A stretch of DNA of 64,000 nucleotides. Source: Geosiphon pyriformis uo1. Lineage: Eukaryota; Fungi; Glomeromycota. Within the stretch, counting starts at the first letter, position 1, and each line of letters begins with the position of its first letter. Below, piece after piece: positions 2,033-57,373 of this stretch. A program made the position numbers and the translations under genes. A model generated the notes under the pieces. The model saw only the letters and a program-made list of their open reading frames with translations. It was not told where the DNA came from and ran no database searches. Location: the NCBI GenBank assembly GCA_016748015.1, contig JAAOMT010000387.1:62001-126000 (forward strand), given 5' to 3'.

Positions 2033-2706
2033 TGTTACCAGAGGTTTTTGGTCTCTTTTCTTAAATGTTGTTGATGCTTGTTTGCTGTGAATTCATGTTT
2101 TCTGGATGTGGTTGAACCTCCAGTAACTGAATTTATCTTCAAATTATCTCCTATAATTTGAACTTGCTGGGCTTATGAGTGGAATGGCCAATTCCATGCC
2201 AGTTGCTTTATGTAGTTACATTGTAGTAAACGTCAACTCTTTCCCAGGAATTGCTCATCTGGAAGCTCACTAAAAATGTGTAGTTACTTTGCTGTAAAAG
2301 TCAACTCTTCTACAGGAATCTCGTCTGTAGGCTACCCCAATGATTGTAATAAGAAAATAAAAAAAAATAAAAAAAATGTAAAAGAAATAGAATTTTGTTG
2401 AGGGAAACGTTTTCTATCCAGGCCTGGAGTCACTAACAGTTTACTGAAATTGGTAGCTAATCAATTTTGAAATGTTAGTTGGGTTTTGGGGATTTTCCAA
2501 GTACAATAATTAAAGAATTTGGTTTTTCGAATTATTTGATATTTATTTCTTTTTGTGTGTATAGAAATGGTTTTTAAGAGATAAATTTAAGATAAGATAC
2601 ATTTTCTCGAAGAGAAAAGCTCTTCTTTTATACAACTTGTCGTAACACTATTCTATGAACTTGAACTTTGCTATTTTCTAAAATTTTGCTGAACTAAAGA
2701 TACATT
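2033..2706 (-). repeat. 3' LTR of A1 (runs into assembly gap)
   Basis: Matches 10466-10749 with 6 substitutions in 284 bp. Homologous to LTRs at 23229, 32729, 41596 and 55536. Confidence 0.95.
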
Positions 2707-3285
2707 NNNNNNNNNNNNNNNNNNNNNNNNNNNNNNNNNNNNNNNNNNNNNNNNNNNNNNNNNNNNNNNNNNNNNNNNNNNNNNNNNNNNNNNNNNNNNN
2801 NNNNNNNNNNNNNNNNNNNNNNNNNNNNNNNNNNNNNNNNNNNNNNNNNNNNNNNNNNNNNNNNNNNNNNNNNNNNNNNNNNNNNNNNNNNNNNNNNNNN
2901 NNNNNNNNNNNNNNNNNNNNNNNNNNNNNNNNNNNNNNNNNNNNNNNNNNNNNNNNNNNNNNNNNNNNNNNNNNNNNNNNNNNNNNNNNNNNNNNNNNNN
3001 NNNNNNNNNNNNNNNNNNNNNNNNNNNNNNNNNNNNNNNNNNNNNNNNNNNNNNNNNNNNNNNNNNNNNNNNNNNNNNNNNNNNNNNNNNNNNNNNNNNN
3101 NNNNNNNNNNNNNNNNNNNNNNNNNNNNNNNNNNNNNNNNNNNNNNNNNNNNNNNNNNNNNNNNNNNNNNNNNNNNNNNNNNNNNNNNNNNNNNNNNNNN
3201 NNNNNNNNNNNNNNNNNNNNNNNNNNNNNNNNNNNNNNNNNNNNNNNNNNNNNNNNNNNNNNNNNNNNNNNNNNNNNNNNNNNNT
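2707..3285. other. assembly gap (N run); should hold the rest of the A1 3' LTR, the PPT and ORF3
   Basis: N run whose flanks align to copy A2 on both sides. Confidence 0.95.
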
Positions 3286-3368
3286 TGGTGTATGGGTTTT
3301 TATGTTATTTTTGTTTTGTTTTTGTGAGATTGTTTCTAAATTATAAGAAAATAACTAGTAAAATTAAA

Positions 3369-6300
3369 TTAAGTGTTCAGATTGGAGGGTTGTTCAATGA
3401 CAACTATTGGTTCTAAGTTTCGGGGAATGTCTTCGGGACTGACCAAAGGGGAATGTGTACCGATTTGTGGAATTAATGGTTCAAGATTGTTTCTGGAATG
3501 ATAGTGTTTCAAACAATCTCCATGTGCAACTTTTGCTAGGATTTTGTTATCAAGTCTTAGCTTGTATGATCTATTGCTTAGGACTTCATGGATAAAGAAT
3601 AGTCCATCCCATTTATTTTCAAATTTTCCACTCTATTATTTTTCAGCTTTAGTTCTGTGTAAGAAAACTTTGTTTCCAATTTTGAATTTATTGGTGACTG
3701 AAGACAATTTGTCATCATGCCATTCTTTTTGTTGAGCTTGGGAGTGTTCAATATGGGTGGCTGCTATTCGTCGTTTTCCTTCCAATGTGCTAAGCAGAGT
3801 GTAGACTCTTCGCTGAAGCATTTCTTGGAAATTGTTTTTATTGATCGGTTGTGCTGGGTATGTTTCTACTGTAAAACTAATTGGTAACGTTGCCGTCCTT
3901 CCATAAGTTAAATCAAATGGTGTGTGTTTTGTGGTATCTTGTTTTAATATTCTATATGCTAGTAACACTGATGGGATAAAGAGATCCCATTCTTGCTCAA
4001 AATCAGTTAAGACTTTGGCTAATGACTCACACAATGTTCTGTTAAACTGTTCCACAAGTCCATTTGTTTGTGGATGGTAAGGCGAAGACAGAGATCTTTT
4101 GACATTGAATCGTTCACAAATTTCTTGTATCAGGTTGTTCACAAAGTGTGTTCCCTAATCAGATAAAAATTCAATTGGACATCCATGTCTACAAATGATG
4201 TCTTCGTTGATGAAATTTGCTACTGATTTTGTATCTGCTTGTTGAATGGCTCTGGTTTTAGGCCATTTAGTAAGATAGTCTACAGCTACTGCAATATAAC
4301 GGTTTCCTTGAGTGGTGATAGATAGTGGTCCAACTAAATCGATACCAACTCTGTCAAAAGGCTGTCCAACTTTGATTGGATTTAAAGGTTCTGTAGGGCG
4401 AGTTCCTCCTTTTCTTTGACAAACATCACAAAATTCGACATATTCATGAATGTCTTTTTTCATTCGAGGCCAAAAGTAGTATTCTAGTGTTCTTTGGGTG
4501 GTGCTATCTTTTCTGAAGTGTGCTGATGAAGAATCCGAGTGTATGTTGTATAAAATGGTCTTTTTTTCTTGTTCTTGTATTAATCTGAGTGGTTTGGTTG
4601 GGTTTTTGAAATTTCGATAATAGATAATGTTGTTGTGTAGAAAATATTGTTTGGCTTGTTGTTGTAACTGATGTTTTTCATCTGGGGACCAATCTGTTGG
4701 GATTGTTAATGTCTCCAAATATTGTTTGAGATTGTTGTAGTTTTCAGGGTTCATTGTTTGTTGTTTTGATGCTATTAATTCAATTAGGTGTTGGTTTTGT
4801 TTCTAATCTTGCCTCATCCTTGAGAGACAATCAACGTTGGTGTGGAGTTTTCCTGGTTTGTGGTGTACAATGTATTGGTAATTAGCTAAAAATCCTGTCC
4901 ATTGGGTTTGTTTTGCGTTCAGCTGGGTGTTTTTGTTTTGAAGCCATTTAAGTCCAATATTATCAGTGATAATATCAAATTCTTTGGGTCTGAGATAAAG
5001 GTTGAAGTGATGTAGGGCCCAGATTACTGCTGCGGTTTCTAATTCTGTTGCGGGGTAGTTCTTTTCGGCTGGCTTTAATGTTCTACTAGCATAAGCAATT
5101 ACTCACTCATTTCCATTGTCATCTAACTGTGATAGAATGGCACCAAAGACAGTATAAGAAGCGTCAGTTGCTAACCAGAATCAGTTGTTGAAGTTTGGGT
5201 AGGCGAGGATTGGGGCTGTTGTGAGTTTTTCCTTGAGTATCTTGAAGGCCTTTTGGTGTTCTTTTGTCCATTTGTATTTGACATTTTTCATAGTGAGCTG
5301 GTTGAGGGGTTTTGCAATTTCTGAGAATCCTTTAATGAATTTTCGGTAATAGGATGCTAATCCAATAAATCCTCTTAATTCTGTGGTATTTCGTGGAGTC
5401 TTGAAGTTTTTGACAGTACTGATTTTTCTAGGGTCTGGTTTAATTCCATCTTTGCTAACAATGTGACCAAAAAAAGCTAAACTTGTTTTTCCGAAGTAGC
5501 ATTTTTCAATGCTCAGTTTCAATCCTGCTTTTTGTAATCGTTGAAAAACTTCTCGCAGGTGAATTAAATATAGCTCAAATGATAGTGAATAAACATCAGT
5601 GTCATCAAGATAAACTATTACTGATTTCCAAAGGAGACCTTTGTAAACAACATCCATGAGTCTTTGAAATGTTGCTGGTGTATTGCATAATCCAAAAGGC
5701 ATTACATTGAACTCGTAATTTCTTCCTTGAGTGGTGAATGCTGTTTTGGGGCGGTCTTTGGGATCCATAGCAACTTGCCAGTATCCACTCTCTAAATCTA
5801 ATATTGAAAAGTATTTGGACTTTTCAAGAGCATCCAACATGTCATCAATTCGGGGAAGAGGGTAGGCATCCCCAATAGTGACACTGTTGAGTTGTCGGTA
5901 ATCAACACAAAATCGTATCTTTCCATTTTTTTTTTTAACTAGAACCACAGGTGAGGCCCATGGGCTTATTGATGGTTGAATAAGCCCATTGTTAAGCATC
6001 TGTTGTACTTCTTCTCGGATAAATTGGTGACTTTCTGGAGCAACTCAGTAGGCTTGTTTTCGCTTGGGTTTGGTATCTCCTGTATAGATTTGGTGTTGAA
6101 CCAAATCAGTTCTTCCTAAGTCATTGTTGTTTTTGGCGAAGATATCAGCAAATTCCGCAATTAGTTCTTTGAGCTGGGTCTGTTGTTGTAGTTCAAGTTG
6201 TCCCATGTTGATTTGAGATAGTTTTTCCATGACAACATGATAGTTTTCAGAGCTAGGGTTTGGGTTGATTTTCAGTAGGGAATGTCCAATAATTTCAGAG

Positions 6301-9300
6301 AAATCGGGGACTGTTTGGGGTAATTCTTGTTGAAATATATTACTGTGAATAACTCCAATTTCTAAATTATTTAATAAAATTATGGGATAATTATTGGGAT
6401 TGTAAAAAGTAACTTGGACTTTTTTTGTTTCTTCTGGAATATAAATGTTTGGGATCAAAATATTATGTTCCAAGCAGACTTGTTCATTGGATTCAAAAAT
6501 TTGTTGTGTGGTTGTTGGCTTTGTGCAAGTGTAAATTTCTGGATGTTCTCCAAAGGGTGAGATGGTAATCGGTTGTAGAAGTCTGAGAATCTGGTGGGAT
6601 TTGTTCTGTGTGTTAAGAGCTATATTAACTGGAACTGTGAATTGTCTAGTTGAACCAAAATCTTGGGTTCCTCTATCACTTTTTCCTAATTGTTCTCTTT
6701 GATTGACTAGTTGCAAATCCGAAATGTTGATTAAGGGTAGGTAAATAGCTTGGGCAATTTTTTCAGCATGTTCGATCTTGAATGGTTTGTCAGTTTCATT
6801 TTAAAGCATCACTGTTATGTCTCCAGTATATCCAGCATCGATTATTCCTTCTCTGATATTGATTCTTTTGCTTGCCAAAGAGGACCGGGAGACGATTTGA
6901 ACCATTGCTCCTGGTGGGATTTCGAGTGCAATTTTAAGATTGATTTTTGTGAGAGATTTGGGTTTGAGAACAAGAGTATCCTTGCCTGGATATCTTAGGT
7001 CATATCCAGCATCAATTTTATGTACTTTTTCGGGTTTTATTCCTTGTTCGTTGCTGTTAAAGTATTTAAGTTGTAAGGCAGGCTGATTTTCGATAAGGTA
7101 AATGGGTATTGTTTCAATTTCTTCTATTTCTTCAGGTTCTCCAAATTCAATTTCATTCTCATCATTTTCACTGGGCAAGGAAATACTAAGAGCATAGCAT
7201 TCAGGACACCACTGTTTATCACAAGGCATAATGCATTCTTCACATAGCCTAATGTTCATTTGCTCTAATCATTGAATTTGAGCTTCTTGGGTCGGGTAGG
7301 TGTAACTTACAATTTGGTGGTAGACTTCTACTTCATCTTTGTAATCAAATCCAGCTAATTCCATAGTGTATTCAATGTATTCTGCTTTTTTCATTTGACA
7401 AACATCTTCTTTGGTAGCTCCATTAATTAATGCTATTGCTAAGTTAAAAATTATCTCGGCATCATAAGGGTAGTAATAAAGTTTGTTGAGAGCACTGTTG
7501 TATGCTGCATTAAAGGGTGTTCCTCTTTTTACTTTTTCTGAAATTGATAAAGCATATTGGCAGGTCTGATCATAGACGCCTCCTCTTATTGCTACATCAA
7601 TCCAATTGTATTCTTCTGGTAGCATATCCCCACAAGTCAAACAAGGAGTGTTGTCCCATTTTCCACTCCTTTTTATTAGATGGCCCTATCGCTCTCTGTG
7701 GCAAGCCTTGCAGTAATAACAAGTATGATTCTCATATTTTTCTTCAGGTAAAATGCAGGCTCCCATTGACAATAGTTTCTTGTGACAGTCCTTACATTTA
7801 AGGGGAATATAGAGGCGTTGTTTCCTTGGTTCGGGTTTTAAGTAAGGTATATTGCATCCAGAAGTTTCAGGTTTAGTGTGTGGGGTAAAATGTTCTTGTT
7901 CTGTTTCATCAGCCCAGTTGGATGTTGATCCAAGAGCCATGAATGTTTCGATTATTGGTTTTTTTTCTTCTGGTTCAAATTCAAAAGCCGGGGCTTTTTC
8001 AGAGCGTTTGTTGAATGTACCACAAATGGCAGGTACCCAGGCATGTTGTCCTTGGTAGGAGATTGTTAACTCTTGTGTTTCCCAGTTCAGATTAGCATTG
8101 GCTTTTTGAAGCCAATCATTTCTGACAAGGGCTTGGTACTGGGGTGCATCCATTACAAGAACTTTGACTGGAATGGTGATTCCATCAAGAGTGAATGGAA
8201 AATTGTCAATTTCTCCTACTGGTGTCTTTTTCATGCCATCGGCAGTGATGATTACTGTTTGAGCTGGTCGGTCGACATTTCTTTTCAACTGTTGCATTAA
8301 CTGGTAGGTAATAATGCTTCCGGCAGATCTACTGTCTAGGATCAAGCGAATTGGCTTTCCTTTTACTTCAGCTTCTGTGTACATTGCAGTGATGGCTTTT
8401 TGTTCATTAGCCACTGCATTGCTAAGCAAGAATGGTGATTCATTTGCTTCAAATTCAAAAGGAAAGATATCAGAGAGATTGGCGTTTTCAGCAATTCGGG
8501 CTGGTGGAATAGTAATGTGATTATGAGAAGGGTTTTGTTGTTGTTGTGCTGCAGCTCTACCTTCCAAAAGTGTAGTATGGTGAAAATTCTGTTCTTTTGG
8601 CATTGTTAAATAACTGGGTTGAGTGTGGTAGTGGTTGGGTCTTGGTTGAGTGAAATTTTGGAGAACCAATTGGTTATTTGGACTGATTCTATTGTTGTTT
8701 ACTTGGTATTGGTTTTGTGGTGTGAATTGATTTTGTGTAATCAGTCTTCAAGCAGGTACTTGATAATGTTGTGTGGGTGGTTATTGGTATTGCTGTTGGA
8801 TTGGTTGTGGGGCGGGCTGATAATAGTTATTTTGGTACTAGGATCTTGGTGGATAGTAAGCTGATGGTGATGGTTGATAATAAGATTGCTGTGGTGGAGA
8901 GTAACATTGATTACCCCTGTTTTGTTGGTCTTGCTGTAGCTTTCTGCAATCTTTTTTCCAGTGGCCAGAGATTTCACAGTAATGGCAATTCTGGGGCTGG
9001 TTATTTGAAAATGGTGCAAAGTTATTTTGATTTTGTCTTTGGGGTGGTTGATATCTTTGGGGTTGTTGTTGTTGTTGGTTGGTAAAATAGTTTTCGATCT
9101 TCTTTGTGAGTTGGTCAATTTTTTTCTTAGCTGCTGAGCTGGTTTCTCTAATTGCCAAATTTACAAGTTTTGTACGATTGGCCTCTTTCATGGCCATTTC
9201 GTATCTTTTCGCATGCTGGATGGCAGAGTTTAAATCTTCTGGCGCGTGTGGGCGAACCTTTTTAATTAGTTTATCTTTTAGACCAGCAAATTGATCCAAG

Positions 9301-10421
9301 ATTTGAGCATCGGAATAATAATCGTTTGTCTCGAGTTGGCGAATCTATCTGAGAAGTTTGTTGAATTTCCCAATATAAGTCATAACGGATTCGGAGGGTT
9401 CTTGTTTGATATTTCGAAAACGATTGTGAAGAGTAATAGAGGTATTATTGTCAGTGAACTGTTCAAGGAAGGCTGTTTTGAAAGCATTCCAATCATTGAA
9501 TAGGGCAGCAAGGTTTTCAAACCATTCTTCTGCTGTTTCTTTGAGAAAGTAGGGAATTGTTCTTAACATTCTGGCAGTGTTCCATCCATTTGCATCTCCA
9601 GCTTTAGTAACTTGGTCGAGTCATTCTTGGGGACTGGTCTCAATATCTTCTCCATTGAATTCAGGGATTTTTGCGATGTATGTTGTCATTTCGTTTTCTT
9701 CGTTTTTACTGTCTATTGATTCTTCTTCGGTTATTTCAGAGTTGTTTTCTTTGTTTGCTGCTGTCTCAGAGTGTTCACTTTGATTTTTAGCTAGAAAATC
9801 AAGGAGATTGGAACTAGTTTGAAGGGGTTCTTGTTGTCTGGTAGGACTTCTGAGTGATGTAAAATCTTCTGGTCTTGCAAATCGATTCAAGAGTGAATTA
9901 GGTGTTTGTGCTTGTACAAGTGAGGCTGGAAAAGGTGTGATAGTAAGTGGAAGTTTTGAACTGGTTCCTTGTTCAGGTGTTTGTAAATGTTTAGCAGTTG
10001 TTTTCGGTAGTGTTGGAGTATTTGGGGTGGTTCTTGAATATTGCTTTAATTTGTTTTTGCCTTTGTTGCTTGTTTCTGTTTCCGATTCAAAATTAATAGT
10101 GTATTGAGACTGCACTGGATATGTTTCTTCACAGTATTTGATAATGTTATAATTAAGTTCGTGAAAGTAAGTGGCAAGTGTTTCACTATTAAGGTCTTCA
10201 GTTCCCAACTGTGAATAGTGTGCTAAATTATTGTAAAGGTTGCTTCTAACTTCTGAGATATTGTAATTTCCAAAAAGATAATTGTTGATGCGGTTTTCAA
10301 TGTATTGGTATACTGATTTCTTGACAATTTCAATTCCGTCTGGAATGTTGAATCTTTGCTTGCAGTGGGTGTAAATTGATTGGTAATACTCTAGAGTTGT
10401 TGTGTCTGGTGTGGTCGCCAC
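3369..10421 (-). pseudogene. A1 single-frame Gag-Pol polyprotein (~2350 aa): N-extension, Gag, CCHC, protease, Cys-rich domain, dUTPase, RT, RNase H, integrase; nonsense-disrupted
   Basis: Ten ORF fragments (starts 10451, 9569, 9299, 8669, 7640, 7259, 6716, 5999, 4754, 4142) are all in one frame. Motifs: CHYCEISGHWKKDC, LILDSRSAGS, DAGYDL/SRSSLA/GIIDAGYTG/KIAQ/RGTQDFGST, PWASPVVLVKKK, YLDD, H-H-CDVC, GIDLVGP, YHPQTNGLVE, KWDG. At least 12 in-frame stops. Confidence 0.95.
6640..7077 (-). pseudogene. dUTPase domain in A1 pol (between protease and RT)
   Basis: All five trimeric-dUTPase motifs in order: DAGYDL, SRSSLA, GIIDAGYTG, KIAQAI, SDRGTQDFGST (GFGSTG in A2). Confidence 0.93.
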
Positions 10422-10450
10422 TTTGAGTTGTTTTTGCTGTGTTGTTTCCA

Positions 10451-10463
10451 TGGGAGAGCACCA
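10451..10463 (-). promoter_or_regulatory. primer binding site of A1 (TGGTGCTCTCCCA)
   Basis: Starts 2 nt after the LTR end with TGG (complement of tRNA CCA). Same core in A2 (41581-41593) and family B (51466-51480). tRNA identity not determined. Confidence 0.85.
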
Positions 10464-10465
10464 AA

Positions 10466-11068
10466 TGTTACCGGAGGTTTTTGGTCTCTTTTCTTAAATG
10501 TTGTTGATGCTTGTTTGCTGTGAATTCATGTTTTCTGGATGTGGTTGAACCTCCAGTAACTGAATTTATCTTCAAATTATCTCCTATAATTTGAACTTGC
10601 TGGGCTTATGAGTGGAATGGCCAATTCCGTGCCAGTTGCTTTATGTAGTTACGTTGTAGTAAACGTCAACTTTTTCCCAGGAATTGCTCGTCTGGAAGCT
10701 CACTAAAAATGTGTAGTTACTTTGCTGTGAAAGTCAACTCTTCTACAGGNNNNNNNNNNNNNNNNNNNNNNNNNNNNNNNNNNNNNNGAACTATTAGATA
10801 TTTCGGTGAACTATCAATTATTTCAGCGAATTTCTACAAATTTCGGCGAACTTCTGAATGTTACATAGTTCAGGGTATTGCATGATTGATCATCGCAATT
10901 AGGTTACATTTGTGTTGTGTACAATTTGGGTTATTAATTAAATGATAATTTCGGACATTTTTGCTAATGTAATAAGTGATCATTTGAAATGATAATATAT
11001 GCTAATTAATGATAGGAATTATAAGATAATTTCATGCTAAATAATATCTCTAATTTCGTCTGGTAACA
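10466..11068 (-). repeat. 5' LTR of A1 (contains gap 10750-10787)
   Basis: Homologous to the 3' LTR and to the A2 LTRs; adjacent to the PBS. Confidence 0.95.

Positions 11069-16440: not shown

Positions 16441-16441
<1 letters not shown>

Positions 16442-16494
<53 letters not shown>
16442..16494. repeat. (TTA)n microsatellite
   Basis: About 17 tandem TTA units. Confidence 0.95.
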
Positions 16495-21768: not shown

Positions 21769-24700
21769 CTCATTTAATTTGGAAGATTGCAACATGCAAT
21801 GTCAGAGATATGAACAATTGTGCAAAGCAAGCAGACATTGTTTGTTGGCATAAGGATATAAACAATCTGGTCTCTATTGTTACTAAAACAAAGTTGTGGA
21901 GAAAAGTTTGCCTTTAGATTGCTGATAGGTTTGATGGTGTTCATGTTTTTACTTCTGGTTTGGATTCTGGTCACATGGGATCTGGTGTTGCTATTATTTT
22001 GAACTCTTTATTGGCAAGACATGTGTGCAAGATTTTGAAGATGCCTGGTCAGCTCTTGTTGGTGAGGCTGCTTTTTAAGAACAAGCTTTCTGTGTCAATT
22101 CTGGGGCTGTATGCTGGCGCTTCTTTGGTGGTTTGTTTCTCTTAGGCTGGTGATATCAACTCTTTCATTGCTAAAGCGGTAAATGAATCTTTCTTCTTCA
22201 TTTTTGGTGGTGATTTCAATGAGAACGGTTCTCACAAATGTGCCAGTTTCAAAAAGTGTTTTGATTTGGATTTGGTTAACTCTTTGAGTAGGAGTTTGTT
22301 TGTGAAATCTCTGACTTGGTGCAATTCTTGTGGTGTTGCAAAGATGATTGACTATGTTTTTGTCTTCTCTAATTTGATTAACACAGTTGTGGATTGCAGT
22401 GTGGCTGGTATTAATAACTTTTTTGATACTGATTATAGGGCTGTTTCTGTGTCTGTGAGTATAGGTAGATTGTTGGATGTGCAGCTTTCTTTATTGTGTA
22501 AACAGACCACCAGGGATTGTTGGAAATTTGACATCAAAAATGCCAATAGAGCTAAGTGATTGGAGTTCAAGAACACTTTGGCTGCTAATGTCTCTATGTT
22601 TTCAGATGCATTTGGTACTGCTGTGAAATTTTCTGATATAGATGCTATGTAGGATATTGTTCACAAGATCATGATTCTTTCTGCAGATGGTACATTTAAA
22701 AGAAAGTGGTTCAAGAGTTTTGATGGCATTTTCATTAAGATGTCTTTTAGGTTTCATAAGCTAGAATTGCTGGTTTCAAAGTTGATCAAGACTTTACGTT
22801 TGGTTTCTAGTGAAGAGTTTGTTGCTTTGTTGGAGGTGTGGCACAGGCTTAATTCTCCTGGTACATCAGTGGTAAAATCTCTGTTTTTTTTAGGTTCTGG
22901 TTTTGATCTTATTTGTTCTGTGCTGGCCAAAGCGAAGAAGTTTTACCGTGCTTCTAAGTTGTTGGAATCCAAATGTGCTGAAAAATCTTCGATCAGGCAG
23001 GCTATTAGTAAGAGGATAGAAAGTTTTGAACTGGACAAGGGTCACACTATTAAGAGTGTTTTGGAGCGTCCCTTTCACAAGGTGGTCTTGGATCATCTGG
23101 TTATGGAAAATGAGTTGATTTTGAAGCCTAACTCTGTCAAATCGAAGGTGGACGAAATTATGGAAGGGTGGACCAGGAAGCGTAGAGTGGTTTCTAATAT
23201 CTCCAAAGATTAGGCTCACCAATATTGGTGTTACCAGACGAAATTAGAGATATTGTTTAACATGAAATTACTCTTATAAATCTTATCATTAATTAGCATA
23301 TATTATCATTTCAAATTATTACTTATTACATTAGCAAAATGTCTGAAATTATCATTTAATTAATAATCCAATTTGTACATAACACAAATGTAACCTAAGT
23401 GTAATAATCAATCATACAATACCCCAAAATATGTAACATTCAAAAGTTTGCCGAAATTTGTAGAAATTCACTGAAATAATTGATAGTTCACTGAAATATC
23501 TAATAGTTCACAGAAATAACTTATAGTTTGCCAAAATGTATCTGTAGTTCAGCAAAATTGTAAAAAAGAGCAAAGTTCAAGTTCATAGAATAGTGTTATG
23601 ACAAGTTGTATAAAAGAAGAGCTTCTCTCTTCAAGAAAATGTATCTTACTTTAGATTTATCACTTAGAACCATTCCTACACACACAAAAAGAAATAAATA
23701 TCAAATAATTTGAAAAAAACCAAATTTTTTAATTATTGCACTTGGAAAATCCTCAAAACCCAACTAACATTTTAAAATTGATTAGTTACTAATTTCAGTA
23801 AACTGTTAGTGACTCCAGGCCTGGATAGAAAACATTTCCCTTGATAAAATCCTATTTCTTTTACATTTCTTTTATTTTTCTTTTCTTTTCTTATTATAAT
23901 CATTAGGATAGCCTACAGACGAGATTTCTGTAGAAAAGTTGACTTTTGCAGCAAAGTAACTACACATTTTTTAGTAAGCTTCCAGACAAGCAATTTCTGG
24001 GAAAGAGTTAATGTTTACTACAATGTAACTACATAAAGTAACTGGCAAGGAATTGGCCATTCCATTTATAAGCCCAGTAGTTCAAATTATAAGAGATAAT
24101 TTGAAGATAAATTCAGTTATTGGAGGTTCAAACACTTCCCATAATTGTGAATTAACAGCATTACAACAAACATACAAGAGCTAAGAAGAGACCAAAAACC
24201 TCCAGTAACATCGGCCTTTAGAGTATGTTTTTGATGGTGCTTTTTCTGGTGTCATGTGTCCGATTAGTTTTGATGAAATGTCAGCAGTCGTCAAGGATTT
24301 TCTTGATAGAAAGGCGGCTAGTCTCTCTGGTATTTCTAACGAATTGTGAAAGTGTTGTGACAAATCAGTTTTGGATATGCTTTTAGTGCTCTTGAACCTG
24401 TGTTTAATTAGTGAGTCAGTTCCTGGATCTTGGAAAAAAGCTTGGGTTTCTATGATCCCTAAACTGTATAAATAGAAGAGAGTTCTTATGAACACTTATC
24501 CTATTGCTTTGATTGAAACGGCCTGCAAAATTCTTTCCAAGATTCTTTCAGATAGGATTTCTTCGGTTTGCAGCACTTTTGATGTCCTTCGCAGAAACAA
24601 TTTTTCAGTTCTAAAAAATACAACAACCCAGTCTCCCATTTTTGCTGTTGGTTCAGTGATTGAAGATGCCCTGGAGAAAAACCGAGAACTCTGGTTGGTT

Positions 24701-32728: not shown

Positions 32729-33714
32729 TGTTACTGGAGGTTTTTGGTTTCTTCTTAGCTCTTGTATGTTTGTTGTAATGCTGTTAACTCACAACTATGG
32801 GAAGTGTTTGAACCTCCAATAACTGAATTTTTATCTTCAAATTATCTCTTATAATTTAAACTGCTGGGCTTATAAGTGGAATGGCCAATTCCGTGCCAGT
32901 TGCTTCATGTAATTACATTGTAGTAAACGTCAACTCTTTCTCAGGAATTGCTTGTCTGGAAGCTCACTAAAAATGTGTAGTTATTTTGCTGTAAAAGTCA
33001 ACTCTTCTATAAGAATCTCATCTGTAGGCTACCCTAATGATTATAATAAGAAAATAAAAGAAAGAAAATAAAAGAAATGTAAAAGAAATAGAATTCTGTC
33101 AAAAGAAACGTTTTCTATCCAGGCCTGGAGTCACTAACAGTTTACTGAAATTGGTAGTTAATCAATTTCAAAATGTTAATTGGGTTTTGAGGATTTTCCA
33201 AGTGCAATAATTAAAGAATTTGGTTTTTTTTGAATTATTTGATATTTATTTCTTTTTGTGTGTGTAGAAATGGTTTTAAGTAATAAATCTAAAGTAAGAT
33301 ATATTTTCTTGAAAAGAGAAGCTCTTCTTTTATACAACTTGTCATAATACTATTCTATGAACTTAAACTTTGCTCTTTTTTACAATTTCACTGAACTACA
33401 GATACATTTCGGTGAACTACAAGTTATTTCTGCAAACTATTAGATATTTCAGTGAACTATCAATTATTTTGGTGAATTTCTACAAATTTTGGCAAACTTT
33501 TGAATGTTACATATTTCGGGGTATTGCATGATTGATCATTGCAATTAGGTTACATTTGTGTTATGTACAAATTGGGTTATTAATTAAATGATAATTTCAG
33601 ACATTTTGCTAATGTAATAAGTGATAATTTGAAACAATAATATATGCTAATTAATGATAGGAATTATAAAGATAATTTCATGCTAAATAATATTTCTAAT
33701 TTTGTCTGGTAATA
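32729..33714 (-). repeat. 3' LTR of A2
   Basis: 986-bp direct repeat of 41596-42573, next to the PPT GAGGAGGAGGTTA. Confidence 0.95.
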
Positions 33715-34402
33715 TAACCTCCTCCTCAAAACTGAGCTCTGTCAAAGTCCAAGTACTGTCTGTAATTTCCAGATAATAATCCAAAATTATTGAAGAAATT
33801 TGGTCTGAAAATTGTTGAAATTTCAGTTCTGTAAGCTTTCCAATGTATTGAATCTTCAAAGGTTGTAAAATTGGGTTTTGTAGGACGTTTTTACAGGTGT
33901 GGAATAGATCATAAAATCTAAGAGCAGCTTTTAGTTTATAATGACTGTTTGTAAGTCCAGCTGTTGTCTTGAATTTGTTGTGGAGTTGTTTCTGAATAGC
34001 TTCTTTTGTGAGGTTTGCTGCTGTAAGCTCCCGTTTTCATTCATGAAGTGTTTTTCCAATGTAGAAATATCTATATATTGGAGTATAGTTGTAGTTTTCT
34101 TCATTAAGACACAGTTGAAGTTTTTGTTGAATAGTAGTATTTGGTGGAATACTAATAAAAGTGAGTATTAAGTTTTCTCTTAAAGCAAGCTTTAAAAGTT
34201 CTGACAGGTGAATTCCAGAATAACTTCTTGTGTTCTTCTTATATGGGTGATATTTTCGTGAATTTGGGGCTAAATTTGTAACTACTTCTGTTTGGGTATA
34301 ATTAATGTGGTTTCCAGTAACAGTAATAGATAATTTGGGTATTGTTTTTAAAGCTAACATTAGTTTTTGGGATAATTGCTGAATGTTTTGAGGAATAGTC
34401 AT
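33683..34402 (-). pseudogene. A2 ORF3 (env position, ~239 aa, unknown function)
   Basis: ATG at 34402. One TGA at 34037-39 (CGA in A3). Frame continues through the PPT (EEEVI) to TAG inside the LTR. Homolog in A3. Confidence 0.8.
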
Positions 34403-34524
34403 TATAAGAGATTTGAAAATAAAAGAAATTTATTTTTGATGTATGGGTTTTTATGTTATTTTTGCTTTGTTTTTGTAAGATTGTTTCTAAATTATAAGGA
34501 GATAACTATAATAATAAATTTAAG

Positions 34525-37500
34525 TTAAGTGTTCAAGTTGGGAGATTGTTCAATGACAACTATTAGTTCTAAATTTTGGGGAATATCTTCGGGATTGATT
34601 AAAGGGGAATGTGTACCAATTTGTGGAATTAATAGTTCAGAATTGTTTCTGAAATTATAGTGTTTCAAATGATCTCCATGTGCAACTTTTGCTAGGATTT
34701 TGTCATTATGTCTTAGCTTGTATGATCTATTGCCTAGGACTTCATGGATAAAAAATGGTCCATCCCATTTATTTTCAAATTTTTCACTCCATTGTTTTTC
34801 AGCTTTAGTTCTGTGTAAGAAAACTTTGTTTCCGATTTTAAATTCATTGGTAACTGGAGGCAATTTGTTGTCATGCCATTCTTTTTGTTGAGCTTGAGAG
34901 TGTTTAATATGGATGGCTGCTATTCATTGTTTTCCTTTCAATGTGCTAAGCAGAGTATAGGCTCTTTGTTGTAGTGTTTTCTGAAAGTTGTCTTTATTAA
35001 TTGGTTGTACTGAATATGTTTCCATTGTGAAACTAATTGGTAATGTTGCTGTCCTTCCGTAGGTTAGATCAAATGATGTGTGTTTTGTGGTATCTTGTTT
35101 TAGTGTTCTATATGCTAATAACACTGATAGAATAAAGAGATCCTATTTTTGCTCAAAATCCATTGAGACTTTGGCTAATAATTCACACAATGTTCTGTTG
35201 AAATGTTCTACAAGTTTATTTGTTTGTGGATGGTAGGGCGAAGATAATGGTCTCTTAACATTAAATTGTTCACAAATTTCCTGGATTAAATTGTTCATGA
35301 AATGTGTTCCTTAATCAGATAAAAGTTCTATTGGGCATCCATGTTTACAAATGATGTCTTCATAGATAAAGTTTGCTACTGATTTTGCATCTGCTCATTG
35401 AATGGCTCTGGCTTCAGGCCATTTGGTGAGATAGTCTACAGCTACTGCAATATAACGGTTTCCTTGGTTTGTGATAGGTAGTGATCTGACTAAATCGATA
35501 CCAATTCGGTCAAAAGGCTGTCCAACTTTAATTGGGTTTAAAGGTTCTGTAGGGCAAGTTCCTTCTTTTCTTTGACAACTATCACAAGATTTAACATATT
35601 CATAAATGTCTTTTCTCATTCAAGGCCAAAAGTAATATTCTAGTGTTCTCTGAGTGGTGCTGTCTTTTCCTAGGTGTGCTGATGAAAGGTCTGAATACAT
35701 GTTATATAAAATAGTTTTTTTTTTATGTTCTTGTATTAATCTGAGCGGATTGTCTGGGTTTTTGAAGTTTCAATAATAGATCATGTTATTGTGTAAGAGG
35801 TATTGTCTGGCTTGTTGTTGTAACCAATGTTTTTCATCTGGGGACCAATCTGTTGGGATTGTTAATGTCTCCAAATATTGTTTAAGATTGTTGTAGTTTT
35901 CGGGGTTTATTGTTTGTTGTTTTGTTGTTAATTCAAATGGGTGTTGGTTCTGTATTCTAATCTTGTCTCATTCTTGAGAGACATCAATGTTGGTGTGAAG
36001 TTTTCTTGGTTTGTGGTGTACAGTGTATTGATAGTTGGCTAAAAATCCTGTCCATCAGGTTTGTTTTGCATTCAGTTGGGTGTTTTTGTTCTGAAGCCAT
36101 TTGAGTCTAATATTATCAATGATAATATCAAATTCTTTGGGTCTGAGGTAAAAGTTGAAGTGATGTAGGGCCCAAATTATGGCTGCTGTTTCTAGTTCTG
36201 TGGCAGAGTAGTTTTTCTCAGCTGGTTTTAATGTTCTGCTAGCATAAGCAATTACTTGCTCATTTCCATTGTTATCTAATTATGATAAGATGGCACCAAA
36301 GGCAGTATAAGAAGTATCTGTAGCTAGTCAAAATTGGTTACTAAAGTTTGAGTAGGCAAGAATTGGAGCTGTTGTCAGCTTTTTCTTGAGAATTTCAAAA
36401 GCTTTTTGGCATTTTTCTATCTATTTGTATTCGATGTTTTTAGTAATGAGCTGGTTGAAGGGTTTTGTGATTTCTAAGAATCCTTTGATGAATTTTTGAT
36501 AATAGGAAGCTAATCCAATAAATCCTCTCAATTCTGTGGTATTTTGTGAAGTCTTGAAGTTCTTAACAGTGCTGATTTTTCTGGGGTCTGGTTTAATTCT
36601 ATCTTTGCTTACAATGTGGCCAAGAAAGGCCAAACTCGTTTTTCCGAAATAGCATTTTTCGATGTTCAGTTTCAATTCTGCTTTCTGTAATCATTGAAAA
36701 ACTTCTTGCAGGTGTGTTAAGTGTAATTCAAAAGATAGTGAATAAACATTAGTATCATTGAGATAGACAACTACTGATTTCCAAAGAAGGCCTTTGTAAA
36801 CAACATCCATGAGTCTTTGGAATGTTGTTGGTGTATTGTATAATCCGAAAGGCATTATGTTGAACTCATAGTTTCTTTCTTAAGTGGTAAATGCTGTTTT
36901 GGAGCAATCTTTGGGATCTATGGCAACTTGCCAGTATTCACTCTCTAAATCTAATGTCGAAAAGTATTTGGATTTTCCAAGGGCATCCAACATATTATTA
37001 ATTCAGGAAAGGGGGTAGGCATCTCCAATGGTAACACTGTTGAGTTGTCGATAATCAACACAAAATCGTATCTTTCCATTTTTCTTTTTAACTAAGACCA
37101 CCAGTGAGGCCCATGGACTCATTGATGATTAAATAAGCTCATTGTTGAGCATCCATTGTACTTCTTTGCGAATAAATTGGTGACTTTCTGGAGCAACTCA
37201 GTAGGCTTGCTGTCATCTTGGTTTGGCATCTTCTGTATAGATTTGGTGTTGAACCAAATCAGTTCTTCCTAGGTCATTGTTGTTTTCAGCAAAGATATTG
37301 GCAAATTCTACAATTAGCTCTTTGAGCTGGCTCCGTTGTTGTGGTTCAAGTTGTTCCATGTTGATTCGAGATAGTTTTTCCATGACAACATGGTAGTTTT
37401 CAGAGCTGAGATTTGGATTGATTTTTGGTAGTGAATGTCCAATAATTTCAGAGAAATCAGGGACTGTTTGGGGTAATTCTTGTTGAAAAATATTACTATG

Positions 37501-40500
37501 AATAACTCTAATTTCTAAGTTATTTAATAAAACTATGGGGTAATTATTGGGGTTGTAAAAAATAACTCAGACTTTCTTTGTTCCTTCTGGGATGTAAATA
37601 TTTGGGATTGAGATATTATGTTCCAAGCAAATTCGTTCATTAGACTCAAAAATTTGTTGTGTGGTCATTGGCTTTTTACAAGTGTAAATTTCAGAGTGTT
37701 CTCCAAAGAGTGAAATAGTAATTGGTTGTGGAAATTGTAGAATCTGGTAAGATTCTTTCTGTTCATTGAGGGCTATGTTTACTGGAACTGTAAATCGTCC
37801 AGTTGAACCAAAACCTTGGGTTTTTCTTTCACTTTTTCTCAATAGTTTTTTTTGATTGACTAATTGTAAACCCGAAATGTTAATTAAGGGTAAATAAATG
37901 GCTTGGGCAATTTTTTCAGCATGTTCAATCTGAAAAAGTTTATCAGTTTCATTTTGTAACATGATTGTAATGTCTCCTGTATATCCAGCATCTATGATTC
38001 CTCCTCTAACATTGATTTCTGTGCTTGCCAATAATGATCATGAAGTGATTTGGACCATTGCTCTTGGTGGGATTTTGAGGGCAACTTTGAAATTGATTTT
38101 GGTAAGGGAATTTGGTTGAAAAACCAAAGTGTCTTTTTCTGGATATCGTAGATCATATCCAGCATCAATTTCATGTGCTTTTTCCAGTTTTATTCCTTGT
38201 CCATTGTTGTTGAAGTATTTGAGTTGTAAAGCAGACTGATTTTTGATGAGGTAGATAGGTGTTGTTTCAATTTCTTCTGTTGTTTCAGATTCTCTGAATT
38301 CAATTTCGTATTTATTGCTTTTACTGAGCAATGGAATGCTAAGAGTGTAGCATTCAGGACACCATTGTTCATCACATGGCATTATACACTCCTCACATAA
38401 TTTAATGTTCATTTGCTTTAATTGTTAAATTTGAGCTTCTTGGGTCAGGTAGATGTGACTTGCAATTTGGTAGTATATTTCTACTTCATCTTCATAATCG
38501 AATCCAGCTAATTCCAATGTATATTCAATATATTCAGCTTCCTTCATTTGAAGGACATCTTTTTTGGTTCCTCTATTAATTAAAACCATGACAAGTTTGT
38601 AGATCATTTCGGCATTATGGGGGTAGTGATAGAGTTTGCTGAGGGTGCTGTTATATGTGACATTGAAAGGTGTTCCACGTTTTACTTTTTCTGCAATAGA
38701 AAGAGCATATTGACAAGTTTGATCACAGACTCCTCCTCTAAATGCAACATCAATCCAGTTACATTCATTGGGAAGCTGCTTTTCACAAGTAAAACAGGGT
38801 GTTCCATCTCATTTTCCACTTCTTTTAATCAAGTGGCCCCATTGTTCTCAATGGCAGGTCTTACAATAGTAGCAGATGTGACTTTCATATTCTTTTTTAG
38901 GTAAAATACAAGCTCCCATTGACGATAGTTTTTTGTGGCAGTCTTTATATTTAAGGGGAATATAGGGGCATTGTTTCCTTGGTTCAGGCTTTGAGTAAGG
39001 AATATTCCATCCAGGAGTTTCAGGTTCAGAGTATGGAATAAAATGTTCTTGTTCAGTCTCCTCAGCCCAATTGGATGTTGATTCAAGAGCCATGAATGTT
39101 TTAATTATTGGTTTTTCTTCTTCTGGTTTGAATTCAAAAGCTGGGGCTTTTTCGGAGCATTTGTTGAATGTACCACAAGTGGCAGGTACTTGGACATATT
39201 GTCCTTAGTAAGAGATTTGTAATTCTTGGGTTTTCCAGTCTAATTTCATATTGGTTTTTTGAAGCCAGTCATTTCCGACAAGAGCTTGATACTGAGGAGC
39301 ATTCATTACAAGAACTTTGACTGAAATGGTGATTCCATTAAGAGTGAATGGAAAATTGTCAATTTCTTCTACTGGAGTCTTTTTTATGTTATTGGCAGTA
39401 ATGATTACTGTTTGAGCTGGTCAGTCGACATTTTTCTTTAACTGTTGTATTAACTGGTAGGTGATGATGCTTTCAGCAGATCCACTGTCTAGGATTAAGT
39501 GAATTGTCTTTCCTTCGACTTCTACTTTAGTGTACATAGCAGTGATTGCTTTTTGTTCATTGGTGGCTGCATTGCTAAGCAGGAATGGTGACTCATTTGC
39601 TTTGAACTCAAAAGAGAATATATCTGAAAGGTTGGCGTTTTCAGCAATTCTGGCTGGTGAGATTGTAGTAGGAATATAGGAAGGGTTTTGTTGTTGTGCT
39701 GCAGCTCTACCTTCCGAGAGTGCAGTATGGTGAAAATCCTGTTCTTCAGGTATTGTAAGATAGCTAGGTTGAGTATGATAATGAGTGGGTCTTGGCTGAG
39801 CTGGATTTCAGGAAACTAATTGGTTATTTGGATTGATTCTGTTGTTGTTTGTTGCAAATTGGTTTTGTGATGCAAATTGGTTTTGTTGAACCAATCTTCG
39901 AGCAGGTACTTGGTAATGTTGAATGGGCTGTGGAGCAGGTTGATAGTAGTCAGTTTGATATTGTGGTCTTGGTGGATAGTAAGCTGGTAGTAGTGGTGGT
40001 TGGTAATAAAATTGTTGTGGCAAAGAGTAATGTTGATTACTCCTATTCTGTTGGTCTCGTTGTAGCTTCTTGCAATCTCTTTTCCAGTGGCCAGAAATTC
40101 CACAGTAATGACAATTCTGAGGCTGGTTATTAGAGGATGATGTGAAGTTGTTTTGATTCCGTCTTTGGGGTGGTTGATATCTTTGGGGTTGCTGTTGTTG
40201 TTGGTTGGTGAAATAGTTTTTGACTTTCTTTGTGAGTTGGTCAATTTTCTCTTCAGCTGCTGAGCTGGTCTCTCCAATAGCTAAGTTCATGAGTTTTGTA
40301 CAATTGGCTTCTTCTATGGCCATTTCATATCTCTTTGCATGCTGAATGGCAGAGTTTAAATCTTCTGGGGCATGTGGGCAAACCTTTTTAATCAGTTTAT
40401 CCTTTAAACCAGTGATAAATTGATCCAAGATTTGAGCATCAGAATAATAATCATTAGTTTCAAGTTGGCAAATTTGTTTGAAAAGTTTGTTGAATTTTCC

Positions 40501-41550
40501 AATATAAGTTATGACAGATTTGGAGGGTTCTTGTTTGATATTGTGAAAACAATTTTGAAGTGTGATTGAGGTGTTGTTATCGGTAAATTGTTCTAAGAAG
40601 GCAGTTTTGAAAGCTGTCCAATCATTAAAAGGGGTGGTCAAGTTTTTGAACCATTTGCCTGCTGTTTCTTTGAGAAAGTAGAGAATTGTTCTTAACATTC
40701 TGGCAGCATTCCATCCATTTGCATTTCCAGCTTTAGTAACTTGGTCAAGATATTCTTGGGAACTGGTTTCAATGTCTTTTTCATTAAATTCAGGGATTTT
40801 TGTGATGTATGGTGTCATTTTATTTTCTTCGTTTTCACTGTTTATTGATTCTTCTTTAGATATTTCAGAATCATTTTCTTTGTTTGCTGCTGTCTCAGAG
40901 TGTTCACTTTGATTTTCAGCTAGAAAGTCAAGAAAATTGGAACTAGTTTGAAGGGATTCTTGTTGTCTGGTGGGACTTCTGGGTAATGTAAAATCTTCTA
41001 GTCTTGCAAATCGATTTAAGGGTGAGTTAGGTGTTTGTGCTTGTGCAAGTGAAGCTGGAAAAGATGTGATAGTAAGTAGAAGTTTTGAACTGGTTCCTTG
41101 TTCAGGTGTTTGTAAGTGTTTGGCAGTTGTTTTTGGTAGTATTGGAGTATTTGGAGTGGTTTTTGAGTATTGTTTCAATTTTTGTTTGTCTTTGTTGCTT
41201 GTTTCTGTCTCTGATTCAAAATCAATAAAGTATTGAGACTGCACTAGATATGTTTCTTCACAGTACTTGATAATGTTAAAATTAAGTTCTTGAAAGTAAG
41301 TGGCAAGTGTTTCACTGTTAAGATCTTTAGTTCTCAACTGTGAATAGTGTACTAAATTATTGTAAAGGTTGCTTCTAACTTCTGAGATATTGTAATTTCC
41401 AAAAAGATAACTGTTGATGCAGTTTTCAATGTATTGGTATACTGATTTCTTGACAACTTCAATTCCGTCTGAAATGTTGAATCTTTGCTTGCAGTAGGTG
41501 TAAATTGACTGGTAATACTTTAGAGTTGTTGTGTCTGGTGTGGTTGCCAC
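34525..41550 (-). pseudogene. A2 single-frame Gag-Pol polyprotein with Cys-rich domain and dUTPase, nonsense-disrupted
   Basis: Fragments starting at 41550, 39093, 38607, 38412, 38031, 36675, 35619, 35124 and 34863 share one frame. Motifs CHYCGISGHWKRDC, DAGYDL, GGIIDAGYTG, GFGSTG, KWDGPF. Confidence 0.93.
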
Positions 41551-41595
41551 TTTGAAGTTGTTTTTGCTGTGTTGTTTTTGTGAGAGAGCACTAAA

Positions 41596-42573
41596 TGTTA
41601 CTGGAGGTTTTTGGTCTCTTCTTAGCTCTTGTATGTTTGTTGTAATGCTGTTAACTTACGACTATGGGAAGTGTTTGAACCTCCAATAACTGAATTTTTA
41701 TCTTCAAATTATCTCCTATAATTTGAACTACTGGGCTTATAAGTGGAATGGCCAATTCTGTGCCAGTTGCTTTGTGTAGTTACATTGTAGTAAATGTCAA
41801 CTCTTTCCCAAGAATTGCTCATCTGAAAGCTCACTAAAAATGTGTAGTTATTTTGCTGTGAAAGTCAACTCTTCAACAGGAATCTTGTCTGTAGGCTACC
41901 CTAATAATTATAATAAGAAAATAAAAGAAAAAAAATAAAAGAAATGTAAAAGAAATAGAATTCTGTCAAGGGAAACGTTTTCTATTCAGGCCTGGAGTCA
42001 CTAACAGTTTACTGAAATTGGTAGCTAATCAATTTCAAAATGTTAGTTGGGTTTTGGGGATTTTTCAAGTGCAATAATTAAAGAATTTGGTTTTTCAAAT
42101 TATTTGATATTTATTTCATTTTTGTGTGTAAAGAATAATTGTTAAATCTGAAGTAAGATATATTTTCTTGAAAAGAGAAGCTCTTCTTTTATACAACTTG
42201 TTGTAACACTATTTTATGAACTTGAACTTTGCTCTTTTCTACAATTTTGCTGAACTAAAGATACATTTCGGCAAATTACAAGTTATTTCTGCAAACTATT
42301 AGATATTTTGGTAAACTATCAATTATTTCAGCAAATTTCTACAAATTTCGGCAAACTTTTGAATGTTACATATTTCGGGGTATTGCATAATTGATCATTG
42401 CAATTAGGTTACATTTGTGTTATGTACAAATTGGGTTATTAATTAAATGATAATTTCGGATATTTTGCTAATGTAATAAGTGATAATTTGAAACGATAAT
42501 ATATGCTAATTAATAATAGGAATTATAAAGATAATTTCATGCTAAATAATATTTTTAATTTCGTTTGGTAACA
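41596..42573 (-). repeat. 5' LTR of A2
   Basis: 978-bp direct repeat adjacent to the PBS. Confidence 0.95.
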
Positions 42574-55535: not shown

Positions 55536-56550
55536 TGTTACTGAAGGTTTTTGGTCTCTTTTTTTGAATGTTGTAACTGTTTGTTGGTTGCAAATTCACG
55601 TTTTCTAGAAGTAGTTGAACCTCCAATAACTGAATTTATCTTCAAATTATTTCTTATAATTTGAACTGCTGGGCTTATAAGTGGAATGGCCAATTTCTTG
55701 CCAGTTACTTTATGTAGTTACGTTGTAGTAAATGTCAACTCTTTCTCAGAAATTGCTTGTCTGAAAGCTTACTAAAAAAAATGTGTAGTTACTTTGCTGT
55801 AAAAGTCAACTTTTCTACAGAAATCTCATCTGTAGGCTACCTTAATGATTGTAATAAGAAAAGAAAAGAAAAATAAAAGAAATGTAAAAGAAATAGAATT
55901 CTGTTAAGAGAAACGTTTTCTATTCAGGCCTGGAGTCACTAACAGTTTACTAAAATTGGTAGCTAATCAATTTTGAAATGTTAGTTGGGTTTTGGGAATT
56001 TTCCAAGTGCAATAATTAAAAAATTTGGTTTTTTGAATTATTTGATATTTATTTCTTTCTGTGTGTATAGGAATGATTCTAAGTAATAAATCTAAAGTAA
56101 AATACATTTTCTTGAAGAGAAAAGCTCTTCTTTTATACAACTTGTTGTAGTACTAGTCTATGAACTTGCACTTTTTCTCTTTGTTCAAATTTTGGTAAAC
56201 TAAAGATACATTTTGATGAACTACAAGTTATTTCACTGAACTATTGATTAGTTTGGGTGAACTATTCATAATTTCGGCAAATTTCTGTAAATTTTGGCGA
56301 ATTTCTTATAAATTTAGGCGAATTTCTGTAAATTTCAGTGAATTTTAGAATGTTACAAAGTTCAGAGTATTGTGTAATTTGATCATCCTACTTTCTGTTA
56401 TACTAATTAGATTATTTTAATTGAATCGTAATATGTGATAATTGATTAAATAATAAATGATAATTTGAAATGATATTAATATACTAATTAATTATAGGAA
56501 TTATAAGGGTAATTTCGTGCTAATTAATAGCTAAAATTCTACTGGTAACA
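55536..56550 (-). repeat. 3' LTR of A3 (1015 bp)
   Basis: TGTTA...TAACA termini. R/U5 homologous to other A LTRs; distal U3 diverged. Confidence 0.92.
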
Positions 56551-57238
56551 TAATCTCTTCCTCAAGACTGAACTCCATCAAAGTCCAAGCACTATCTGTG
56601 ATATTGAGATAGTGATCCAAAATAATTGAAGTAATCTGGTCTGAAAATTGTTGAAATTTCAGTTCTATGAGCTTGCCAATATATTGAATTTTCATTGGTT
56701 GCAGTATTGAATTTTGTAGAACATTTTCACAAGTATTAAACAAATCATAAAGTTTAAAAGCTGCTCTAAGTTTGTAGTGAGTGTTTGTTGGTCCAGCTGC
56801 TGTTTTGAATTTATTGTGGATTTGTTTTTGTATAGCTTCAGGAGTGAGATTTGTTGTTTCAAGTTCCAGTTTTCGTTCATAAAGTGTTTTTCCAATGTGA
56901 AAGTATTTATAGATAAGGGTGTGTTCATTGTTCTGTTCATTGAAAAGTGATAGAAGTTTTTGTTGCATTGTATCATTTGGTGAAATGTCAATAGGGACAA
57001 TTAAAAGATTTTTTTCCAGTGCTTGTTTCAAAAGTCTTGGTAACCTATTTTCAGAGTAACTACTTGTTTTTTTTTTATAGGGGTGATAGTTCTGTGAATG
57101 ATTTGCTACTGGGGCTGTGGTTTTCTTCTAAATGTAATTAATTTGACTTCCATTAATCATTATGGATAAGTCAGGAAGTATTTTCAAAGCTAACATTAAC
57201 TTTTGGGATATTTGTTGAATATTTCGAGGAATAATCAT
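56531..57238 (-). pseudogene. A3 ORF3 (env position, ~235 aa)
   Basis: ATG at 57238 (MIIPRNIQQISQKLMLALK). One TAG near 57129. In frame with ORF 56531-57031. Ends inside the LTR. Confidence 0.8.
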
Positions 57239-57373
57239 GATAAAATTGACTAATTATGACAAGAGAGAATAAAAAAAATTATTTTTGAGATATGGAGTTT
57301 TTTATTTGTTTTTGGGTTTGGGTGTTTTTGTAATTTATTTACTATTTTTGTCTTTGTGTTTTTATTGTAAAAT

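Follow-up and report, generated by a model that had tools for sequence, protein, structure and literature searches.

A decayed Ty3/Gypsy family of Geosiphon pyriformis with a separate integrase gene and accessory modules under purifying selection

A textbook long terminal repeat (LTR) retrotransposon delivers its integrase within Pol: the integrase of Ty3 is cut out of Pol and, to our knowledge, every characterised Ty3/Gypsy element packages the enzyme as part of this polyprotein. A lineage without that arrangement needs another solution for translation and packaging. Here we describe a Ty3/Gypsy family in which integrase is a separate gene, found in a stretch of 64,000 nucleotides of Geosiphon pyriformis uo1 (assembly GCA_016748015.1, contig JAAOMT010000387.1, positions 62,001 to 126,000, forward strand; hereafter the window). 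A note drawn from the letters of the window (the original prediction) had singled out the family and overlooked this feature, its most unusual one. Taken together, the data make it probable that the copies are the decayed remains of a three-gene family (extension–Gag–protease–Cys-rich insert–dUTPase–reverse transcriptase–RNase H; integrase; a third open reading frame, ORF3), with an integrase likely translated from its own AUG after a short spacer.

Among the closest described systems, Juno, Vesta and TelKA of bdelloid rotifers carry a dUTPase between protease (PR) and reverse transcriptase (RT), a GPY/F module without a chromodomain and a varied ORF3 (PMC5408684), and planarian Burro also has a dUTPase between PR and RT (PMC6431247). 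Fungal Gypsy elements with a dUTPase comprise PosPlaTy3-3/4/5, Phanerochaete elements and Tuber Tmt1; the survey of these elements covered no Mucoromycota, and the role assumed for the enzyme is to lower dUTP where reverse transcription occurs (PMC2864245). In Entomophthora, dUTPase is enriched together with retroviral domains (10.1101/2023.09.13.557621). Ty3 uses a frameshift between Gag and Pol (PMC5911963).

The window holds three copies of the element, A1 to A3, as originally predicted, together with a solo LTR:

2033..11068, minus strand: A1, a Ty3/Gypsy LTR retrotransposon with TGTTAC..GTAACA LTR ends and a TCGC/TCGC duplication
10466..11068, minus strand: 5' LTR of A1, TGTTAC..GTAACA, with an N gap at 10750-10787 inside (the LTR is ~980 bp in A2)
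10446..10463, minus strand: primer-binding site (PBS) of A1, starting with TGG 2 nt past the LTR; a candidate by position
2707..3284, no strand: assembly gap (N) that hides the beginning of the A1 3' LTR and, as predicted, ORF3 of A1
2033..2706, minus strand: visible part of the A1 3' LTR
32729..42573, minus strand: A2, with both LTRs (93.1% alike) and a CCAT/TCAT duplication
55536..64000, minus strand: A3, which ends at the window edge
23229..24210, plus strand: solo LTR of the same family, TTGG/TCGG duplication

A2 and A3 are 85% and 76% identical to A1 in DNA sequence, respectively. Target duplications of 4 bp flank A1, A2 and the solo LTR, with one C/T difference each in the latter two. 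TG..CA LTR ends, a short target duplication, a PBS, a polypurine tract (PPT) and the order PR–RT–RNase H–integrase are those of a Ty3/Gypsy element. In A1, Pfam domains follow the order Gag, PR, dUTPase, RT, RNase H, integrase, with no match to a chromodomain up to an E value of 1, and the best solved-structure match of its RT is Ty3 RT (E 1e-64), the foamy and orthoretroviral enzymes being far behind. Searches with residues 26-1290 and with ORF3 returned 1623 and 188 matches, respectively, and the best 120 listed were in both cases G. pyriformis gene models throughout (120/120). The 49,936 contigs of run X1 that match the A1 interior give no copy number and fit a large family. LTR elements constitute 41.2% of the G. 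pyriformis genome in a curated annotation, and the passages on LTR cover give no element structures (PMC11952901). A1 to A3 and the solo LTR are thus decayed members of a high-copy Ty3/Gypsy family matched to G. pyriformis.

The integrase of this family lies beyond a stop codon common to all copies:

4806..6170, minus strand: RT and RNase H
4755..4805, minus strand: shared stop (4805-4803 in all copies) and A/C-rich spacer, 48 nt in A1 and of varying length
3369..4754, minus strand: separate integrase ORF, 461 amino acids (aa), with HHCC, DDE and a GPF/SH3-like end, no chromodomain

Among the 53 codon sites that read as a stop in any copy, eight do so in two copies and a single one, after RNase H at 4805-4803, in all three. 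The spacer between this stop and the integrase start measures 48 nt in A1, 46 nt in A2 and 56 nt in A3, which corresponds to three different frames. The single frame of ~2350 aa originally attributed to the family is therefore a property of A1 alone, because its spacer is 48 nt long. In the three-copy alignment, 14 of the 15 indels of gene 1 (Gag to RNase H with the extension) keep the frame, the exception being a 1-nt loss in A2; integrase contains none, and seven of the eight indels outside the genes break the frame. In run X1, where contigs are short and the signal weak, summed depth falls across the spacer from ~200-250 thousand to ~25 thousand, with 1-nt insertions, and neither the stop nor the integrase ATG has an alternative letter listed. 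Since the stop is shared by all copies and the spacers differ in frame, integrase is a separate gene in the Geosiphon family, and the canonical location of integrase within the polyprotein is not found in A1 to A3. The enzyme ends in an SH3-like part followed by a short Pro-rich tail; the predicted GPF end without a chromodomain was recovered, with GPF in A2 and A3, GLF in A1 and no Pfam chromodomain match.

Relatives were collected by scanning metagenome contigs with a protease alignment (49 pattern matches, leading to 12 loci). A search with RT among long proteins yielded mostly multi-RT gene models, close relatives occupying three of the best 120 rows. Four of the 12 loci (L001, L002, L003 and L005, of which L002 and L003 are near-identical) reach the integrase start, and all four display a stop after RNase H, a spacer of 87-101 nt devoid of ATG and an ATG aligned with the Met of A1; P0237 and P0239 terminate after RNase H as well. 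In P0242 (residues 1405-1800) and L007 (5424-6006), Pol continues beyond RNase H as an acidic tail with Cys/His that belongs to no Pfam family and is not an integrase. In an RT–RNase H tree built by a quick method (48 rows; P0226 and P0216 were omitted as too short), the three copies and ten relatives form one 13-row clade (Shimodaira–Hasegawa-like approximate likelihood-ratio test, SH-aLRT, 97) that is separate from the plant and algal rows bearing a chromodomain, in a tree without fungal chromoviruses. We infer that the metagenome relatives are of fungal origin. L001, L004, L005 and L006 have overlapping gag and pol frames with a TTTAAAC slippery site, which is absent from the Geosiphon family.

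Besides Gag and the enzymes, the family encodes an extension before Gag, a Cys-rich insert and a dUTPase between PR and RT, and ORF3:

9690..10421, minus strand: N-terminal extension, 244 aa, in frame with Gag, no AUG
10421-10086, minus strand: conserved extension domain, ~110 aa (a low-complexity linker makes up the rest)
8931..9689, minus strand: Gag, with capsid and CCHC knuckle
8001..8420, minus strand: aspartic protease
7197..7796, minus strand: Cys-rich insert, ~14 conserved Cys, CxxC clusters flanking a helical core; no family match
6642..7073, minus strand: dUTPase of the trimeric type, motifs I-V
33683..34402, minus strand: ORF3 of A2, one stop; extends across the PPT into the 3' LTR
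56531..57238, minus strand: ORF3 of A3, one stop

The modules of gene 1 are those originally predicted: the extension spans V24 to the Gag Met (244 aa), the insert C899-C1098 (200 aa), and the dUTPase is complete, with all five motifs. The module order is identical in 117 of 120 gene models (chosen by likeness). The first ATG of A1 sits within the PBS and has no counterpart in A2, and the extension is otherwise free of Met; homology among the extension gene models begins at a GTG in the context AAAGTGG (10421 in A1), which is a candidate start. We consider the extension domain to be coding because gene models at 59-70% identity keep its reading frame and hydrophobic pattern. The ~14 Cys of the insert are kept across 17 rows, so that it likely holds three or four zinc ions. 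Motifs I-V of the dUTPase are retained in most of 43 gene models, from which hydrolysis of dUTP is predicted; a search for its donor gave phage and eukaryotic matches that all fell below 40% identity or had near-equal scores. The linker 3' of the dUTPase was considered as a second, decayed dUTPase, which was not supported.

Selection was assessed by comparing the share of silent changes with a null that places the same base changes at random; since the ratios include post-insertion decay, they are upper values. We obtained 0.40/0.42 for the Cys insert, 0.40/0.31 for dUTPase, 0.47 for ORF3 and 0.37/0.25 for RT (p<=0.0025), 0.47/0.55 for the extension linker and 0.31 for Gag (p<=0.005), versus 1.06-1.11 for the LTR controls. 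The integrase C-terminus gave no signal between A1 and A2. Insert, dUTPase and ORF3 (0.31-0.47) are thus under purifying selection near that of Gag and RT, which supports, for these three, the conservation of accessory regions that the original prediction had put forward for checking. Between A1 and A2, the extension domain and the integrase C-terminus are far more alike than the middle, which suggests recombination between subfamilies. The LTRs of A1 differ by six transitions only over the comparable 284 bp (2.1%), yet the A1 genes contain 14 premature stops; LTR divergence in A2 is 6.9%. Assembly collapse, LTR conversion or copying from a broken template could account for the low value of A1. 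Decay specific to CpG or CpA was rejected, as the C>T rate varies little with the base that follows (three-copy majority).

The dUTPase profile matches none of the 12 loci (seven of which span PR to RT) and none of three relative proteins. The relatives' extension holds an H-x3-H..C-x2-C domain, and when extension and insert were compared with their counterparts in the relatives, the profile probabilities were 0.1-0.2% (the alignments have long flanks). An ORF in the place of ORF3 is present in two of the four loci that show this region (L001 and L007, not L005 and L010); it has a weak motif likeness to ORF3, only suggestive in profile comparison (probability 4%, E 0.01). As judged from these sequences, extension, insert and ORF3 would be shared slots with differing cargo across the clade, and the dUTPase would have been captured by the Geosiphon family itself. 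The claim that the combination of modules defines a distinct lineage accordingly holds for the family (selection, order in 117/120 models, an RT–RNase H branch of its own) and fails as a clade signature, the relatives lacking dUTPase and having no detectably homologous extension or insert.

The absence of dUTPase from the relatives, and of ORF3 from some, would also be accounted for by an ordinary Gypsy family, already catalogued, whose inserts are specific to its lineage and whose accessory parts are passengers without a role in transposition; in addition, PosPlaTy3-5, Juno/Vesta/TelKA and Burro are published examples of a dUTPase between PR and RT, and the LTR elements of G. pyriformis are already curated. 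We regard this explanation as unlikely: insert, dUTPase and ORF3 are constrained to nearly the level of Gag and RT, and neither the three-gene structure nor a split integrase was found in the literature searched (Repbase, Dfam, GyDB and subscription papers were outside the search). In particular, a separate Gypsy integrase is not described in the parts consulted of PMC5911963, 10.64898/2026.05.21.726589 and 10.1101/2021.03.30.436303.

A three-gene family under selection would transpose by the standard copy-and-paste route through RNA. PR would cut gene 1 into Gag parts, insert, dUTPase and RT–RNase H, as in related elements, and the dUTPase would lower dUTP where reverse transcription takes place and so prevent uracil from entering the cDNA. 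A start codon other than AUG, or a spliced leader, would likely account for synthesis of the extension and thereby for a longer form of Gag. As for integrase, ribosomes ending gene 1 would scan the unstructured A/C-rich spacer and restart at the integrase AUG, and the free enzyme, not being a part of Pol, would reach the particle or the cDNA through binding. In reinitiation of the calicivirus or victorivirus type, the start codon overlaps the stop codon or is a few bases away from it. A spacer-type junction widens the routes beyond such an overlap: in all seven junctions the two codons are 46-101 nt apart, and no splice acceptor shared across the seven was recognized by eye. For these two reasons, reinitiation after a short scan is our tentative first choice, close to an even chance; translation from a shorter RNA, spliced or internally started, comes second as a real if somewhat smaller possibility, and fusion to Pol by recoding would be the least likely route.

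Joining of integrase to Pol by splicing, read-through or frameshifting, i.e. an ordinary polyprotein obtained through an unusual step, would agree with the packaging of integrase within Pol in all Ty3/Gypsy elements generally known, and the spacers of A1 (48 nt) and L002/L003 (87 nt) are indeed in frame. The seven junctions, however, represent all three frames, have TAG in some cases and TAA in others, and contain further stops with no common acceptor by eye, and a Met stands at the aligned place in four of four relatives, which makes such a fusion improbable. Translation of integrase as a separate gene therefore remains the preferred reading.

The third gene was compared with env, whose position it occupies. 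ORF3 is ~235-239 aa long in A2 and A3, and none of five proteins contains a membrane segment or a signal-like hydrophobic stretch (the top 19-residue hydropathy is 0.95-1.29) and no Env family of Pfam matches. In the structure model, a helical core (residues 81-205) reaches a predicted local distance difference test score (pLDDT) of 80-93; the fold search gave a best Z of 4.2, Foldseek returned nothing from PDB or BFVD at E<=0.001, and sequence searches of PHROGs and PDB gave weak matches only. The ORF3 product is thus not env and is modelled as a soluble, helical protein; its core being basic and aromatic, it may bind nucleic acid, which we put forward as a possibility somewhat short of even. 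The extra ORF claimed for the env position is therefore real in A2 and A3 and not env-like, and the label "retrovirus-like" overstates it. Among 35 representatives, distant homologues were found in four Geosiphon models and two metagenome records. The latter two have C-terminal residues that are encoded by the PPT and the LTR start, for which reason they are likely ORF3s too; their score may be partly due to this shared cis sequence. Scans of viral contigs with ORF3 and protease found no relatives. A GAGCTCA-like motif lies a few bases 5' of the PPT throughout the clade, and the ORF3 C-terminus includes its translation:

A2 33712-33740; A3 56550-56580; L001 5500-5535; L005 5050-5085; window 52670-52699: GAGCTCA-like motif

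One ORF3 homologue has as its top Atlas match a eukaryotic, mostly Mucoromycota, hypothetical cluster, and as its second a closterovirus coat protein cluster (0.93, 156/256 features; a lead only), a protein not among the structure matches listed for the ORF3 model. Capture of ORF3 from a virus, as a structural or movement protein that stands in for env and carries particles or RNA between nuclei, hyphae or hosts, would suit the env position and this second match, and is most improbable given the lack of a membrane segment or signal-like stretch and the eukaryotic top match.

Several observations weigh against a translated three-gene family with functional modules. All three copies are broken, the A1 frame having 15 stops, and the integrase start reads ATA instead of ATG in A2 and A3, which we took as G>A decay since this change is common in A1 to A3. 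The junctions show none of the stop/start overlap on which classic reinitiation relies. The relatives were selected for the likeness of their proteases, and the tree, built by a quick method, contains no named reference clades. The extension domain shows no selection signal in the only comparison, A1 versus A2 (19 differences, p=0.92), and the AAAGTGGC motif with the candidate GTG also lies 3' of the PBS in a non-coding element, so that it may be a cis signal rather than a start. Extension and insert fit no known protein family; the structure model of the insert is poor (pLDDT 52), and its best structural match (Z 6.6, residues 84-145) is a generic helix bundle. ORF3 fits no family either, its likeness to DUF1016_N being below the cut-off (3 of 28 members, best E 0.028). 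An unusual three-gene layout with selected accessory modules nonetheless constitutes a real Ty3/Gypsy family, the functions of the modules being putative. A bolder version of this reading, which we hold to be doubtful, would see in the clade an unnamed group of fungal LTR elements with a three-gene RNA, integrase being translated and packaged apart across a spacer of free length and two Gag forms arising through GUG; ORF3 and the zinc-rich insert would be new folds that counter silencing or ferry integrase, and the family with the captured dUTPase would have overrun the Geosiphon genome.

The surroundings of the copies are rich in other repeats. A non-autonomous 3-kb LTR element (50572-53644, plus strand) has TGTTAC..GTAACA ends, an ATGA/ATGA duplication and internal tandem repeats; its primer site, TGGTGCTCTC, resembles that of the A1 to A3 family, and a broken N-terminal piece of dUTPase lies at 52440-52684, directly 5' of its PPT. 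The A1 to A3 family or a relative probably mobilized it in trans. Numerous LINE-like copies in a decayed state, with an RRM-type ORF1, endonuclease, RT and RNase H, occupy 375-2060, 18593-22600, 24476-27439 and 28381-32720, with further ones at 42574-44930, 49538-50570 and 53716-55535, and these harbour the insertions of the LTR copies and of the solo LTR. Exons of host genes belong to the CBF/Mak21 family (13224-13901, plus strand) and the UNC-50 family (14527-14856, minus strand). Very A+T-rich stretches (9-14% G+C) at 16001-17000 and 45001-49000 of the window possibly represent end-stage cytosine decay.

The family accounts for hundreds of G. pyriformis "hypothetical proteins", as well as dUTPase and Gag domains, as parts of a transposon; an expansion of these two domains is reportedly described in the Geosiphon genome paper. 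It also supplies three conserved protein modules (extension, insert and ORF3) without a known family, with selection seen in insert, ORF3 and the extension linker. All its enzymes are standard and the placement of the dUTPase is published, so that the system is not of a new kind. It resembles yeast Ty3 in the best RT structure match, the order PR–RT–RNase H–integrase, LTR, PBS and PPT; unlike Ty3, which relies on a Gag/Pol frameshift and obtains integrase from Pol, it encodes Gag to RNase H in one frame, with integrase apart. The relatives (L001-L008, P0237, P0239, P0242) share with it the RT–RNase H clade, the RNase H stop, the separate integrase, an extension in most, an insert between PR and RT, a TGGTGC primer site and the GAGCTCA-like motif before the PPT, but have no dUTPase, an extension and insert without detectable homology and, in some, a TTTAAAC gag/pol frameshift. 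PosPlaTy3-5 likewise has a fungal host and a dUTPase captured into pol between PR and RT; in the text consulted, however, the PosPlaTy3, Phanerochaete and Tmt1 elements are placed among chromoviruses, with one or two ORFs and no separate integrase (PMC2864245). The rotifer elements come closest in the place of the dUTPase, an extra zinc motif beside it (in Juno), GPY/F without a chromodomain and an ORF3 that is often not env; as these traits are published (PMC5408684), the layout is not, to that extent, undescribed as originally suggested. Their ORF3s are of the env, GDSL, DEDDy, coiled-coil or membrane types, none of which is that of Geosiphon, and the Geosiphon family is set apart from them by its layout, with a 200-aa Cys insert before the dUTPase, a 244-aa Gag extension and a separate integrase gene.

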